A stretch of DNA of 64,000 nucleotides, from positions 128,001 to 192,000 of IMG/VR virus record IMGVR_UViG_3300050821_001527. One strand, written 5' to 3'. Each line of letters begins with the position of its first letter. The first letter of the stretch is position 1. Of the stretch, positions 8,963 through 28,466 are shown one piece after another. The position numbers and the translations under genes were made by a program. The notes under the pieces are model-generated. The model was not told the DNA's origin and searched no databases. It worked only from the letters and a program-made list of their open reading frames with translations. This DNA is from a virus. Lineage: Duplodnaviria; Caudoviricetes.

Positions 8963-9260
8963 CAAGATTATCGCCCTGTTCGCGGCGGGAGGGCTAGTGA
9001 TAGGTGGCTATCATTTCGGCTCTCAAAGCAAACCTCGCCCGCGCATAATGCTCTATTGGACGAATCCCATGTCGGCCAATACGAATGCGTTCGTCGAGAT
9101 ATGGGCGACCACCAACCTGCATAACTGGAACCTCAAGACTACCATCCCGTCCAGTCAAACCAATATCTACTTCCCGACCACGGAGATTGCGGAATTTTTC
9201 CGACTCAGAAATGCCTTGGTTTCTGGAAGTGTGACGCAGTATTCGGGCTGGAACCAATAA
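8946..9260 (+). CDS. Membrane-anchored/secreted small protein
   Basis: N-terminal hydrophobic helix; EIWATTNLHNW...FFRL. Confidence 0.7.
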   Translation: MKKHLNKIIALFAAGGLVIGGYHFGSQSKPRPRIMLYWTNPMSANTNAFVEIWATTNLHNWNLKTTIPSSQTNIYFPTTEIAEFFRLRNALVSGSVTQYSGWNQ

Positions 9261-9838
9261 TGAAAATCACCCCCAACAGTTTCTTCGACGGGGATTTCTA
9301 TAAGATAAATCTCAACGTTTATCTGTCGAACGGAGGCTTCAAGGATTGCCAGAAGCCCGAAGTCGCGCAAAGGCTGATAAACAAGTTGGGGCGTTTGACG
9401 TGGGGCGGATACGGGGAAAACCGCAAGGATATTTTTCAAAACAGTTATCTGGCCAAGACGGGGAACTTTTATCACTTGGGGGTTGACATTAACGTTCCAA
9501 AGGGAACGCCGGTTAAGGCTCCATTCGATTGCGAAGTCCTGCAAGCGTGGCCCGACCCCGATACCGACATTGGTTGGGGCGGAAGGGTCATCCTCAAGGC
9601 AAGCGATTGGCTACCGTTGCTTGTTCTCGGTCATTTGCACCCAAAGAAACTGCCCTTTTGCCGAGCCTACAAACAGGGAGAAGTTCTTGGGGAAGTCGGG
9701 ACATGGCCGCTCAACGGGAACACGTTTGAACATCTGCATGTCCAATGTATCAAGCATAATAAATTCGATAAATTTGACGGCTACGGAAGTCTTGCCCAGT
9801 TGAGGCACAACCCCGACCCGATGGAAGTAGATTTTTAG
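9260..9838 (+). CDS. M23 family peptidase
   Basis: HLGVD.NVPKGTPVKAP, GWGG, LGHL, HLH. Confidence 0.85.
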   Translation: MKITPNSFFDGDFYKINLNVYLSNGGFKDCQKPEVAQRLINKLGRLTWGGYGENRKDIFQNSYLAKTGNFYHLGVDINVPKGTPVKAPFDCEVLQAWPDPDTDIGWGGRVILKASDWLPLLVLGHLHPKKLPFCRAYKQGEVLGEVGTWPLNGNTFEHLHVQCIKHNKFDKFDGYGSLAQLRHNPDPMEVDF

Positions 9839-9840
9839 GC

Positions 9841-9869
9841 TTGACAACAACCGAATGATTTGATAGATT
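9841..9869 (+). promoter_or_regulatory. sigma70-type promoter for ncRNA
   Basis: TTGACA-17-TAGATT followed by non-coding structured region. Confidence 0.8.
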
Positions 9870-9872
9870 GAG

Positions 9873-10139
9873 GGTTCTGTTTTAAGAGCAAGTCCTACGC
9901 TGTGACGGGTGTAAGCCCCGGCATAGAGGACAAGTTCTCGGCTCTACAGCAGCCGTGGGAGGGAAAACCCGCTATTCACCACATGGTATGAGCAATCCTA
10001 AAGTCCCAAAGGCTAGTGCTGGCCGTAGTAAAGGGAAGGTTGGAGCAGCGACTATTAGCACGTCGCCACCGTAAGGTGAGAAAAATGTAGGACACCCGCA
10101 AGGGAACATAACCGAGGCCATTGCTCTTAAAACAGAATC
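9873..10139 (+). ncRNA. Unassigned ~265-nt structured ncRNA
   Basis: Perfect 17-bp terminal stem (9875-9891/10121-10137), GTCCTAC/GTAGGAC helix, GNRA hairpins, no ORF. Confidence 0.75.
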
Positions 10140-10175
10140 TTTGGTAGCGAGTTGGTTTTTGGTGTAATATCAGGT

Positions 10176-10787
10176 ATGAACAGTGGTATCTACTTGATAA
10201 CCAACATAATCAACGGCAAGAAATACATCGGGTCTTCGTCAAGATTGCATAGGCGTTGGCGCGAACACGTTAGAGATTTGGAGAGGGGAGTTCATCAAAA
10301 CCCCTATTTTCAAAAGGCATGGGACAAACATGGCCTTGCGAGCTTCCAATATTCCGTGCTTGAGGAATGTGATAGGACTCAACTCCTTGCGAGAGAGTCA
10401 TTTTGGATAGAAGCCCACCAGAGCTTTCAGAGGGAATTGGGATATAACCTATGCCGATTCCCTCAACATTATGCCCTTGGCCTCAAACGCCGTCCTGAAA
10501 CGATTGCCCGTATGAGCAAAGCTCTTAGCGGCCAAAACCATCCCGGTTGGGGCAAGAAGCTCCCCAAGTCTCAAGTTAAAAAAATGGCAGATGCTCAACG
10601 AGGGGTTTCTAAACCTACTTCCGGCAGCGAAAGGAAGATATTTGAATTGCTGTCGCCCGAAGGCAAACTCTTGAGAATAAAGGGATTAAGAGTATTTTGT
10701 CGTGAGCAAGACCTTAGCCCTTCCATGATTTGTCGGGTTCTCAGTGGGAAACAGGCCGTTCATAAAGGGTGGTCACTATCTTCTTAA
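10176..10787 (+). mobile_element. GIY-YIG homing endonuclease with NUMOD3-like motif
   Basis: SGIYLITNIINGKKYIGSS; RRPETIARMS...HPGWGKK; flanked by 11-bp direct repeat TCTTAAAACAG. Confidence 0.9.
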
Positions 10788-10811
10788 AACAGTGTAATAA
10801 AAGGTAATAAT

Positions 10812-11477
10812 ATGAAATATTTTACCTTATTGGTGTTGGCCCTTTGTTTGGGATTCGGGTTTCAATCCTATGCGGGTTTTTCGTTTTCGGTCAAGCCACG
10901 TCATTCCATTTTCGCGCCTGCCGCAGCCCCAACGACTGCTTTGCAGCTTCAATTACTGGCTTTACAGCAACAGTTTAACACCCAAAGCCGCAAACTGGAT
11001 TTGGTCAATCAGGCTAAAAACCTCGTAAATGGCAACGCTTTAGACAAGGTTGACCTCATGTGCCTCGAATTGGAAGCCGTGAGCCGTATTGAGAAACTTC
11101 CTTATATCAAGGACGGGCCGAGTGATACTTTGGCTGATTTGCCGAACTGGACTGTCCATGTCATGTCTTTTCTCCCGCCGCCCATTTCCTCGACCAACCC
11201 GCCAGTCGGAACCGCTGCCCAATTACAGGCTCAAATCAGCAGCCTCGAAATCCAAGTAACCATTCAGGAACAACAACTTCTGGAGATTCAGGCGTCGGCC
11301 AACAACCCGTCTCAAATCGTCAATGACGCTTGGTGGCAGAGCCAAGTGGACTGGGCAGCTTGGACGATGGCGTCTGTGGCTCAAACCCTTGCATTGCCGG
11401 TCAGCACCCCCATTTCTAACCTTCCTGCTTGGGCAGCTTCCGTCATGCTTCGTTTGCCACCCAATACCAAACTCTAA
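10812..11477 (+). CDS. Secreted protein with internal duplication
   Basis: Signal peptide; two Q-rich coiled-coil + LPxW..VM..LPP units. Confidence 0.75.
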   Translation: MKYFTLLVLALCLGFGFQSYAGFSFSVKPRHSIFAPAAAPTTALQLQLLALQQQFNTQSRKLDLVNQAKNLVNGNALDKVDLMCLELEAVSRIEKLPYIKDGPSDTLADLPNWTVHVMSFLPPPISSTNPPVGTAAQLQAQISSLEIQVTIQEQQLLEIQASANNPSQIVNDAWWQSQVDWAAWTMASVAQTLALPVSTPISNLPAWAASVMLRLPPNTKL

Positions 11478-11695: not shown

Positions 11696-12331
11696 ATGAC
11701 TGATTTCTTAGACAGAAGCACCGTTTTGGTTCTGAACTCGCTCTATCAACCGATAGGGACGATTTCTCCCAAGAAGGCGCTGGTTGCCCTTAATTCGGCC
11801 TCAGACCAATGTGATATAGCCGCCAAAGCTATTGACATTCAGTATGCTGTAGGCGAAGACGGCAAGTATGACCTCGAAACCGTGGAGACGTTTACTCCAT
11901 GTTCTTTTGAGGAATGGCTGAACGTTACTGTTCGTCCGGGGCTTGACCAGATTATTCACACGTCGAAGATGCAGATTCGCTGCCCGACTGTGGTAATCAC
12001 GAACTACAGCAAGATTCCCATGCGTCGTTTCAGGGCCACGAAGTCCGTCCTTTACGAAATGCAGAAGGGCATCTGCGGTTATTCGGGCGTCAAGTGCAAC
12101 CCGAAGCAACTCAACATCGAACACAAGCTTCCGCGCAGCAAGGGCGGGAAGGACACGTTCGAGAACCTGATGCTCGTCAAGAAGGAAATCAACTTCGCTC
12201 GCGGCAACAAGCCGATGAAGGAACTTGGCCTCAAGCCGCTGTTCCGCCACCAAGAGCCGAAGCCGATTCCGGCGAGCTTCACAATCAAGACGGCTGTGCA
12301 TCCTGATTGGGGTTATTTTATTCAAAAATAA
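11696..12331 (+). CDS. HNH endonuclease family protein (McrA/HNH_5-like)
   Basis: VLVLNSLYQP...ICGYSG...NIEHKLPRSKGGKDTFENL...N..RGNK. Confidence 0.85.
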   Translation: MTDFLDRSTVLVLNSLYQPIGTISPKKALVALNSASDQCDIAAKAIDIQYAVGEDGKYDLETVETFTPCSFEEWLNVTVRPGLDQIIHTSKMQIRCPTVVITNYSKIPMRRFRATKSVLYEMQKGICGYSGVKCNPKQLNIEHKLPRSKGGKDTFENLMLVKKEINFARGNKPMKELGLKPLFRHQEPKPIPASFTIKTAVHPDWGYFIQK

Positions 12332-22100: not shown

Positions 22101-23192
22101 ATGAACAACACCGACCAAGAATACTTCCGTCTCCTGCGCCTTATCCTCGATAATGGCCGCACGAAAGTCAATCGAACCGGCGTGGATACCATCGGCGTTT
22201 TCGGCGCACAGGCGCGTTTCAATCTCGCCGAAGGCTTCCCACTTCTAACTACCAAGAAAGTCTTTCTCAAGGCCATCATCCACGAACTGCTCTGGTTCAT
22301 CAAGGGCGACACGAATATCAAGTATCTGGTTGATAACGACGTTCACATTTGGGACGAGTGGGCCTACAAGCGTTTCTGCGATGCTCAAAAAGGGACGGAC
22401 GGAGTTATTACGAAAGCCCTTATTGACCAAAAGCAATTCATTCAGAATATCAAGGAATTTCCTGAATTTGCCGCTAGATGGGGCGACCTTGGAGAAGGCA
22501 CCTACGGAGGCATGTGGAGGGCGTTTCCTTACTACCGCGAATACGATGACGGCGAGGATGGTTCCGACTGCGCTACTATACAACGCGCCCATGAAACGAT
22601 TGACCAACTCAAAAAAGTCGTGGATAAGCTGAAAACCAATCCCGATGACCGTCGCATGATTGTCAGCGCGTGGCATCCTTACTGGGTTGACCATTGTGCC
22701 CTACCGCCGTGTCATTGTCTTTTCCACTTCAACACGGAAGAACTAACCGTCTCTGAGCGACTGGACGTGTATCACAAGGGAGGCTACAACTTGCTTCCGA
22801 AGTATCTTGGCGCGGACGATGCCACGGCGCACAAGAATCTGGATGATATTGGCGTTCCCAAACGCAGGCTTAACTGCTTGCTCTATCAACGCTCCTGTGA
22901 CACGTTCTTAGGCGTTCCATTCAATATCGCCAGCTACGCGCTCTTGACGAGCATGATTGCCAAGGTGGTCAACATGGTTCCCGGCGAGTTTGTCCACACC
23001 TACGGCGACTTGCACATTTACAAGAACCATCTGGAACAGGTCAAGGAACAGCTTTCGCGCAAACCGTTCGACAAGCTTCCTACCTTGAAACTGAACCCCG
23101 CCGTCACCGATTTATTTCAATATAAATACGAGGACATTTCAGTCATGGGATATGAATGTCATCCCGCCATCAAAGCCCCCATCGCTGTCTAA
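22101..23192 (+). CDS. thyA: Thymidylate synthase
   Basis: [44 protein letters not shown]. Confidence 0.97.
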
Positions 23193-27296: not shown

Positions 27297-28466
27297 ATGA
27301 AAATCTACGCCGAAAACACTCGCGTCCCAATCAAGTCTTGGTGTGAAAACCCGGAAGCCGGGGCTATCAAGCAGGCCGAGAACATGGCCAACCTGCCATT
27401 CACTTTCAGACACGTCGCCCTCATGCCCGACACCCATCAAGGCTTTGGTATGCCTATCGGTGGAGTTCTGGCTACCGATAACGTCATCATTCCGAACGCT
27501 GTCGGAGTTGACATTGGGTGCGGTATGTGTTCCATCGAATCCAACATCCAAACTTGGGACAGGGAACTGTTGACGGAAGCCATCAAGGAAATCCGCTACA
27601 ACGTTCCTGTCGGATTCAGCCGCCATCTTACCGCGAAGCCTGTGGACAAGCTGCCCGCCAGCACGTCCCCGAACGCCTACTATGAGAAGTTCCTTGAGCC
27701 GTCCCTGTTCCAACTCGGAACCTTGGGCGGCGGGAATCACTTCATCGAATTACAGAAGAACCCGAACGGAAATCTGTGCGTGATGATTCACTCTGGTAGC
27801 CGCAACATCGGGAAGCAGGTTGCCGACTATTACAACAAGCTCGCCCTCGCTCTGAACCAGCGTTATTTCAGTCAGGTCACGAAGGAAACCGACTTGGCGT
27901 TCCTGCCGCTTGACTCTGCCGAGGGTCAGGCTTACTTGGCGGAAATGACTTACTGTGTCGCGTTTGCCTTGGCGAACCGCATGGAAATGATGAACGCTTG
28001 CCAGCAAGCCATCTACAAGGTTTTCAAGCCTTTGCAACAGGTCGAGTTCACGAACTTCATCAACATTCCGCACAATTATGCGAAGGTTGAAAAGCACTTC
28101 GGCAAGGAAGTCGTCGTCCACCGCAAGGGCGCGACGAATGCCAGCGAGGGCGTCATTGGGCTAATCCCCGGCTCGCAGGGCACCAAGAGCTACGTGGTGC
28201 GCGGCAAGGGTAATCGTGAGAGCTTCGAGAGTTGCTCCCACGGCGCAGGCCGCAAGATGGGCCGCATGGTCGCCAAACGCACTCTGAACATCGAAGACGA
28301 GCAACGCAAGCTGGACGAACTTGGAGTCATTCATGCCGTCCGCGCCAACTCTGACTTGGACGAGGCTCCGGGTTCCTATAAGGACATTGACGTGGTTATG
28401 AGCGAGCAAACCGACCTGATTGACGTTATCGAAGAACGCACTCCTTTGGGAGTCGTGAAGGGGTAA
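27297..28466 (+). CDS. rtcB: RNA ligase RtcB
   Basis: MPDTHQG, VGVDIGCG, GTLGGGNHF, HSGSR, HRKGA, SHGAGR, DEAPGSYK. Confidence 0.97.
   Translation: MKIYAENTRVPIKSWCENPEAGAIKQAENMANLPFTFRHVALMPDTHQGFGMPIGGVLATDNVIIPNAVGVDIGCGMCSIESNIQTWDRELLTEAIKEIRYNVPVGFSRHLTAKPVDKLPASTSPNAYYEKFLEPSLFQLGTLGGGNHFIELQKNPNGNLCVMIHSGSRNIGKQVADYYNKLALALNQRYFSQVTKETDLAFLPLDSAEGQAYLAEMTYCVAFALANRMEMMNACQQAIYKVFKPLQQVEFTNFINIPHNYAKVEKHFGKEVVVHRKGATNASEGVIGLIPGSQGTKSYVVRGKGNRESFESCSHGAGRKMGRMVAKRTLNIEDEQRKLDELGVIHAVRANSDLDEAPGSYKDIDVVMSEQTDLIDVIEERTPLGVVKG

Follow-up and report, generated by a model that had tools for sequence, protein, structure and literature searches.

RNase P is regarded as a cellular housekeeping ribozyme, which trims newly made tRNAs. 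The window analyzed here, a 64,000-nt stretch of DNA (bases 128001-192000 of the 202,882-bp IMG/VR virus record IMGVR_UViG_3300050821_001527; CheckV completeness 91%), carries a gene for a structured RNA, with an open reading frame (ORF) for a GIY-YIG nuclease directly downstream. We consider it probable that the RNA is a miniature phage RNase P RNA, and that the nuclease is a selfish homing endonuclease lodged at the 3′ end of the RNA gene, without a functional partnership between the two. Homology of the RNA to the catalytic (C) domain of bacterial type A RNase P RNA is very likely, judging from its helix topology and from covariation across a family of related RNAs. Coordinates are window positions unless a locus label (L0xx, G000) is given.

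Identification of an RNA Family

Relatives of the flanking proteins (the M23 peptidase and the product of ORF 10812-11477) were not found in IMG/VR. Two genes further out from the RNA do have relatives, and a BLAST comparison of the RNA with those records gave short matches; reading of the matched records yielded homologous RNAs with conserved blocks. A degenerate pattern made from the blocks seen in these first homologs matched 13 viral and 37 metagenomic loci, which came to at least 34 distinct family members, from uncultured phages, after removal of duplicates and of one spurious match (L032). Thirty-two family sequences were aligned, with indels, by MAFFT (alignment A1), and a family covariance model (R1) was built from this alignment. 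Another member, L059, whose 5′ end is truncated by the end of its contig, stands outside A1. R1 scores the window RNA at 196 bits, and finds it in a single copy in the whole genome. The sole pattern match among 185,579 prokaryote species, in a Bacteroides metagenome-assembled genome, is put down to chance, since R1 gives it no confirmation.

The elements of the RNA gene are as follows, with helices (P), junctions (J), and conserved regions (CR) named as in bacterial RNase P RNA, and with percentages referring to paired cells in A1:

9260-9838: M23-peptidase gene, upstream neighbor of the RNA gene
9841-9869 (+): sigma-70-type promoter, TTGACA-17-TAGATT, with 10 of 12 consensus matches and a TG ahead of the -10 element
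9875-10137 (+): RNase P RNA-like gene, ~260 nt, with a type A catalytic domain and a vestigial specificity domain
9875-9891 (+): P1 5′ strand, pairing with 10121-10137; P1 is predicted by RNAalifold for the family
9892-9898 (+): P2 5′ strand, GUCCUAC, pairing with 10087-10093
9900-9926 (+): P3 hairpin, 97% paired, with 30 extra pair types
9927-9941 (+): J3/4 and P4 5′ strand, AGGACA-AG-U-UCUCGG, the CR-I equivalent, with a bulged U at 9935
9942-9951 (+): P5 5′ strand (9942-9944) and P6 5′ strand (9947-9951, CAGCA)
9955-9982 (+): specificity-domain remnant, P7 (GUGG/CCAC) around one hairpin (9961-9970)
9990-9998 (+): P5 3′ strand, J5/15 AA (9994-9995), and P15 5′ strand UCC
within 10004-10044 (+): P16 and P17, with the P6 3′ strand in the loop (10017-10021, UGCUG)
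within 10004-10044 (+): GGU (10038-10040) and P15 3′ strand (10042-10044)
10048-10066 (+): hairpin A, loop UAUUAGCAC, at the P18 position; 100% paired, many swaps
10067-10078 (+): hairpin B, GUAA tetraloop, at the P18 position; 95-98% paired, many swaps
10079-10093 (+): J18/2 (AGAAAAAU) and P2 3′ strand, aligned to AGAUGAAUG of RF00010 and E. coli
10095-10104 (+): extra GCAA-capped hairpin inside J2/4; a similar insert is found in L040 only
10105-10119 (+): J2/4 and P4 3′ strand, AACAUAA-CCGAGGCC, the CR-V equivalent (family consensus ACAGAA-NNNN-GGCUA)
10121-10137 (+): P1 3′ strand, enclosing the first copy (10125-10135) of an 11-nt repeat

Covariation and RNase P Hallmarks

Helices were tested by comparing the paired cells in A1 with those in 1000 column shuffles and in shifted registers. 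Pairing holds in 95% of cells for P2, 97% for P3 and P4, 98% for P5, 84% for P6, 100% for P15, and 95-100% for the two 3′ hairpins; for each of these, none of the 1000 shuffles equaled the observed pairing, and shifted registers paired just 15-56% of cells across helices (20-39% for P4). P16 and P17 are paired in 68-76% in this alignment with indels. Unprompted, RNAalifold predicted P1, P3, P4, P15, P16, and both hairpins, with compensatory changes in 34 of 43 pairs; all 10 of its P1 pairs show such changes. P4 has GC/AU/UA/CG swaps at four positions, P6 has 13 extra pair types, and P15 has UA/CG swaps.

The arrangement of these helices is that of an RNase P core. P4 is a long-range helix with a bulged U, in which GAGGA(CA)AG-U-UCnnnn pairs with nnnnGGCUA, with ACAGAA ahead of the latter (in the window, 9933-9941 with 10112-10119). 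Its two halves resemble CR-I (GAGGAAAGUCC-like) and CR-V (ACAGAA-NNNN-GGCUUA-like): the 5′ strand aligns to GAGGAAAGUCCGGGC of RF00010 and of E. coli, while the 3′ strand is placed after the P2 3′ strand, giving the pseudoknot topology of RNase P. A second pseudoknot, P6, forms between the loop of P17 and the strand that follows P5, just as it does in type A RNAs. Single-stranded elements agree as well: the AA of J5/15 is invariant in A1, the GGU of the P15/16 loop varies there little or not at all, and J18/2 has a conserved AGAnAAAU, which, like ACAGAA, aligns to the RF00010 consensus and to E. coli rnpB.

Covariance models connect the two groups in both directions. RF00010 aligns end to end with L059, at 19.9 bits the best score in the family (E 0.0055 in an 11-kb search, 1.4e-4 in a 290-nt search), and the alignment sets each RNase P-like element onto its bacterial counterpart. 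Reciprocally, when R1 is applied unfiltered to a 4-kb E. coli K-12 locus, its top match is the annotated rnpB, end to end (1707-2106 versus the annotated 1717-2093, in locus coordinates), with 10.5 bits and an E of about 0.003 on a rough calibration.

The initial annotation, made without database searches, could not match the RNA to RNase P and proposed a novel phage RNA, to be given up should it match a known family. The catalytic-core topology, the covariation, and the weak RF00010 match to L059 refute this by that criterion: the RNA is no new class, but a divergent RNase P RNA without a specificity domain. In the Rfam comparison suggested there as a check, the window copy was unmatched and the family member L059 matched.

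Several observations weigh against the assignment to RNase P. Both cross-matches are weak, far below the RF00010 gathering score (100 bits), so that the case for membership is carried mainly by topology and covariation. The window copy escapes every Rfam RNase P model, even at E up to 10: searches with Rfam at gathering score over the whole window, and at E up to 10 over 9700-10900, returned nothing relevant, RF00010 left the RNA unmatched in its own genome and in the records of five relatives, and RF02357, the archaeal T-type model, found no match in its own genome at E up to 10. The specificity (S) domain is nearly absent. From one P7 strand to the other the window RNA has 28 nt, and family members have 25-119 nt; CR-II and CR-III, which belong to the P7-P14 specificity domain of bacterial type A RNAs, are unrecognizable in this remnant. 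The window copy is also the most deviant of the family, in three ways: the outer end of its P4 has an A.C mismatch, common within A1 only to L047 (L059, outside A1, has it too, by its GGCCA sequence); it has a U where the family has R in ACAGAA; and it carries the 10-nt hairpin in J2/4. Finally, there is no RnpA gene (PF00825) in the phage genome. The extra hairpin of J2/4, in the window as in its counterpart in L040 (L040:2946-3226), adjoins the catalytic P4 helix.

The Specificity-Domain Remnant

In bacterial RNase P, the S domain contacts the tRNA elbow. In the RF00010 alignment about 140 S-domain model positions are replaced by the 28 nt of the window RNA, and across the family what is left is P7 enclosing one variable hairpin, the bases of the junctions being conserved. 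Two ideas about this loss were tried and set aside. One was that it is coupled to unusual tRNA T-loops. In the window's own genome, 13 of the 17 tRNAs identified by ARAGORN have a T-loop beginning in TGC or AGC. Most tRNAs of relatives that share the mini RNA, however, have the canonical TTC (85 of 125); the S-domain reduction is a family trait, not tied to a change in the elbow. The other concerned the loop of hairpin A: its UAUUAGC is complementary in most members to a GUUAAUA past the S-domain hairpin (A1 columns 285-293 vs 201-208), and the two may form a tertiary contact standing in for the lost S-domain contacts. The complementarity is 83%, but 244 of 1000 shuffles equal it, so covariation lends the contact no support. 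The loop itself (UAUUAGCAC) is nearly invariant, partly as fixed by the search pattern.

Promoter, Extent, and Fold of the RNA

There is no credible ORF between the M23-peptidase gene and the nuclease ORF. Transcription is predicted to start ~6-8 nt past the -10 element (about 9875-9877), on the opening base of P1; of 32 family members, 12 have a comparable promoter, which ends 3-28 nt ahead of P1. In several others a tRNA gene comes immediately before the RNA gene, suggesting that the two are transcribed together and then processed. The + strand folds at -103.4 kcal/mol (z = -4.56), a value that none of 200 shuffles matched; the fold of the reverse strand is weaker (z = -3.28).

Promoter and fold thus bear out the initial description of a structured non-coding RNA with its own promoter directly upstream of the GIY-YIG ORF, and most of the pairings listed there also stand: the perfect 17-bp terminal helix (9875-9891 with 10121-10137, uninterrupted Watson-Crick), GTCCTAC/GTAGGAC (9892-9898 with 10087-10093), GCGAC/GTCGC (10048-10066), and the GNRA-capped CACC-GTAA-GGTG (10067-10078) and CCC-GCAA-GGG (10095-10104). 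A proposed TAGAG/CTCTA pairing has no family support; TAGAG is the end of P3 plus part of the single-stranded J3/4, and CTCTA lies in P5.

Association with tRNA Genes

In relatives, the RNA gene lies within tRNA arrays, on the same strand. Of 33 family loci, 24 hold tRNA genes, in 19 cases with one no more than 500 nt from the RNA; all 125 tRNAs found by ARAGORN in family loci are on the strand of the RNA, and 110 of them end in an encoded CCA. The window's own phage has 17 ARAGORN tRNA genes in its whole genome, 15 of them ending in CCA, in a large array (G000:C1:118163-129460) about 10 kb upstream of the RNA gene. Encoded CCA ends in phage tRNAs fit well with this RNA, since it retains the GGU loop.

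A further family member is in a cultured phage. In Stenotrophomonas phage DLP6 (accession taken from PMC5349666), R1 finds a full-length copy within a tRNA array (89 bits, E 2e-25), at L067:15762-16033 (KU682439.2, about 105,761-106,032), between AAY80_165 (a hypothetical coding sequence) and tRNA-Arg-CCG. It is unannotated in the record, and was detected solely by the covariance model: blastn searches of 50,697 GenBank phages, with the window RNA and a further two members as queries, produced no match.

In one relative (L041:575-849), the stretch before P3 resembles the 3′ half of a tRNA (GGTTCGAGTCCCG), so the RNA gene there may abut or overlap a tRNA-like element; R1 still scores it as full-length, at 148 bits. 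The window also encodes an RtcB RNA ligase (27297-28466, +; Pfam E 4e-108), a further RNA repair or tRNA-related function.

The GIY-YIG Nuclease and the 11-nt Repeat

The nuclease gene and its surroundings comprise:

10176-10787 (+): ORF of 203 aa with GIY-YIG and NUMOD3 domains, a well-supported free-standing homing endonuclease
10782-10792 (+): second copy of the repeat TCTTAAAACAG, including the nuclease stop codon
10136-10792 (+): putative inserted cassette of leader, GIY-YIG ORF, and second repeat copy, with predicted boundaries

The ORF matches PF01541 (E 8e-12), PF07460 (E 2e-6), and phrog_314, “homing endonuclease” (E 8e-34). Orthologs with 47 and 44% identity over their full length are found directly 3′ of the RNA in two relatives, L019 (a 279-kb phage) and L045 respectively, with the same combination of GIY-YIG and NUMOD-type DNA-binding module. 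A close relative of L045, L014, has a 15-codon nuclease stump, MTGIYSITNLINNKI*, directly after its RNA gene (L014:11174-11221, +). The nuclease is thus intact at three of 34 loci and a stump at one, always directly 3′ of the RNA, while in 30 members that spot is taken by tRNA genes or by unrelated sequence. Since just three of the 34 RNAs carry an ortholog, and one a stump, identification as a free-standing homing endonuclease is well supported; the pattern of gain, decay, and loss is that of a selfish homing gene, apparently using the end of a conserved gene as its site. This agrees with one suggestion of the initial annotation, that the 3′ end of the RNA is an insertion site: relatives show the site empty and, in one case, the decayed stump.

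In L019, the 3′ end of the nuclease ORF (L019:3161-3775, -) overlaps the start of tRNA-Ala (L019:3108-3181), so that it is tightly wedged between the RNA gene and a tRNA. In the window, the GIY-YIG gene is followed after about 900 nt by an HNH ORF (11696-12331, +; Pfam HNH_4, E 4e-6); it seems to encode a second, putatively homing-type nuclease, as though the region collects selfish nuclease genes.

The repeat TCTTAAAACAG does flank the GIY-YIG ORF, at 10125-10135 and 10782-10792, as first described. It has three matches in the window (the third a complement, at 9877-9887) versus 0.02 expected. The junction past the second copy (AAAACAG/TGTAATA, with the break after AAAACAG) has its match in L014 and L045 at the point where the RNA ends and the nuclease leader begins, and TGTAATAT also stands ahead of the window's nuclease start codon. 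From these matches the empty-site allele would be the RNA 3′ end joined to TGTAATAAAAGG...; the inserted segment would then be 10136-10792, and the 11-nt repeat would be a scar of recombination. This last step has difficulties of its own. L019 and L045 carry no flanking repeat, and to our knowledge homing endonucleases normally leave no direct repeats; the scar is for these reasons an ad hoc explanation. The repeat had been likened to a target-site duplication: it is real, but a transposition-type duplication is rejected as a general rule, as the other two nuclease-bearing loci do not have it.

Possible Roles of the RNA and Its Neighbor

As an account of the whole locus, we propose that the RNA is a miniature RNase P RNA with its C domain whole and its S domain cut to a 28-nt stub, forming part of the phage tRNA toolkit. 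It would be transcribed from its own promoter, beginning at the first base of P1, and would fold through the P4 and P6 pseudoknots; its GGU loop would pair with the encoded 3′-CCA of phage pre-tRNAs, whose 5′ leaders it would remove, probably together with host RnpA. A nuclease lineage would repeatedly have taken the site just 3′ of the RNA gene, inserting after the last P1 base and in this phage leaving the 11-nt repeat of the P1 3′ strand as a scar. No promoter or terminator separates the RNA from the nuclease ORF, making expression of the nuclease by read-through from the RNA's promoter likely. The separate parts of this account deserve different degrees of trust. We lean toward function as a tRNA 5′-processing ribozyme with host RnpA, though with modest confidence; the broader proposition, that large tRNA-rich phages own a working catalytic-domain-only RNase P that borrows host RnpA and does without reading of the elbow, we favor by the slightest degree.

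One alternative is that the RNA is descended from RNase P but does not process tRNAs, serving instead as a decoy for host RnpA or pre-tRNA, or cutting some other RNA of phage or host. The near absence of the S domain, the lack of a phage RnpA, and the deviations of the window copy in P4 and J2/4 could all be read in this way, and the sole viral RNase P-like RNA found in print, that of camelpox, is inactive in vitro (PMC3001073). On the other hand, the P4 bulge, J3/4, the AA of J5/15, GGU, and J18/2 are conserved over 32 diverged sequences, and a protein sponge alone would not need such conservation of elements for chemistry and CCA binding. The genes lie inside arrays of CCA-encoding tRNAs, and the archaeal T-type RNAs, without the same region, are reportedly still active (PMC7191817). 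We therefore regard a non-processing role as unlikely.

A cis-acting 5′ leader, such as a riboswitch or mRNA-stabilizing element for the nuclease mRNA or a downstream operon, is very unlikely. Promoter, structured RNA, and ORF do form one terminator-free transcription unit, but in relatives the RNA precedes tRNA genes or unrelated sequence, often with tRNAs directly before it, and a covarying terminal helix closes the RNA, as in stand-alone stable RNAs.

The initial annotation also considered an RNA-nuclease pair analogous to omegaRNA-IscB, in which the RNA would guide or scaffold the GIY-YIG protein, and held that an RNA occurring mostly without a nuclease would speak against it. In favor of it, the two genes are neighbors on one strand, no terminator intervenes, and the pairing recurs in L019 and L045. 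The neighbor comparison proposed along with that idea, however, finds the site often empty and its occupants not always GIY-YIG: 30 of 34 RNAs are without an adjoining nuclease, and one has the stump only. The protein is of the standard I-TevI/Seg-type build, a GIY-YIG domain with a NUMOD3 DNA-binding motif, and the RNA is already explained as an RNase P RNA. We reject this reading as still less probable than a leader; a nuclease beside a structured RNA is not in itself an RNA-guided system.

Least probable of all is a group I intron or intron-like ribozyme whose 3′ extension holds a homing endonuclease ORF: GIY-YIG ORFs are frequent in group I introns of phages, and here the ORF follows the folded core, but there is no Rfam group I match, the RNA has its own promoter and complete genes on either side (the flanking ORFs are not two halves of one), and its covarying helices fit RNase P and not P1-P10 of group I introns.

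Significance

If the preferred account, of a mini-RNase P RNA with a selfish nuclease, is correct, these phages would have a tRNA supply independent of host RNase P, and a ribozyme gene so well conserved that a homing-endonuclease lineage could specialize in landing there. With an RNase P RNA carried by phages, the list of viral translation-related genes would gain a ribozyme, and there would be a natural experiment on a catalytic domain without a specificity domain, independent of the archaeal T-type. Because the DLP6 copy is in a cultured phage, the question can be put to a direct test.

For host RNase P, the tRNA precursors of phages such as T4 are textbook substrates, according to a 2024 RNase P review (PMC11143913); no phage-encoded RNase P RNA appears in the passages of that review that were searched. 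A literature search for phage or viral RNase P RNA, with incomplete coverage and a correspondingly provisional result, brought up no paper describing phage mini-RNase P RNAs. A megaphage scan with Rfam reported only tRNAs and a tmRNA (PMC8172020), as would be expected if RNAs like this one lie beyond the reach of such scans.

Separately, the window has a thymidylate synthase ORF (22101-23192, +) whose 363 aa match a 266-position Pfam profile end to end, so that it must hold an insertion of about 100 aa.

Comparison with Known Systems

With omegaRNA-IscB and TnpB systems, the locus has only its layout in common, a structured RNA beside a nuclease gene; the phage RNA is mostly without a nuclease, and has no guide segment. 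The nuclease is much closer to T4-type GIY-YIG enzymes (Seg proteins, I-TevI architecture), with an N-terminal GIY-YIG domain, NUMOD3, and about 200 aa, and the L045 copy weakly matches SegE_GIY-YIG. Like them it lies between genes, is patchy among related genomes, and leaves decayed remnants; here, however, the target would be the end of a ribozyme gene, and the window locus alone has an 11-nt flanking repeat.

Like the camelpox RNA (PMC3001073), the phage RNA is virus-encoded and RNase P RNA-like. Camelpox is a eukaryotic virus, however, and its RNA has a partial structural similarity and no activity in vitro, whereas the phage family keeps a full catalytic core with covariation.

The closest counterpart is the bacterial type A RNA (RF00010; E. 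coli M1 RNA, rnpB). Order and pairing of P1-P6 and P15-P17 are the same, and both have the GGU in the P15/16 loop, the AA of J5/15, an A-rich J18/2, and the motifs GAGGAAGU.C and ACAGAA-NNNN-GGCUA, along with the weak reciprocal covariance-model matches. The phage RNA differs in its length (about 260 nt vs. 377), in having no recognizable P8-P14 or CR-II/III, in filling the P18 position with two hairpins, of which one has a 9-nt loop that is conserved, in being phage-encoded, and in scoring far below the Rfam threshold.

Reduced RNase P RNAs are known from bacteria: those of Mycoplasma fermentans and of CPR bacteria have lost P12-P14 and P18, and lowered covariance-model thresholds were needed to find them (PMC8172020). 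Those are the sole chromosomal copies of a cell and, by the account of that paper, have lost single helices, not a whole domain. The T-type minimal RNase P RNA of Thermoproteaceae (RF02357; Lai et al., 2010, by way of PMC7191817) is archaeal and works with archaeal proteins, whereas the phage RNA has the P6, P16, P17, and GGU loop of bacterial type A; because it keeps these features, its S-domain reduction is independent of that in the T-type.

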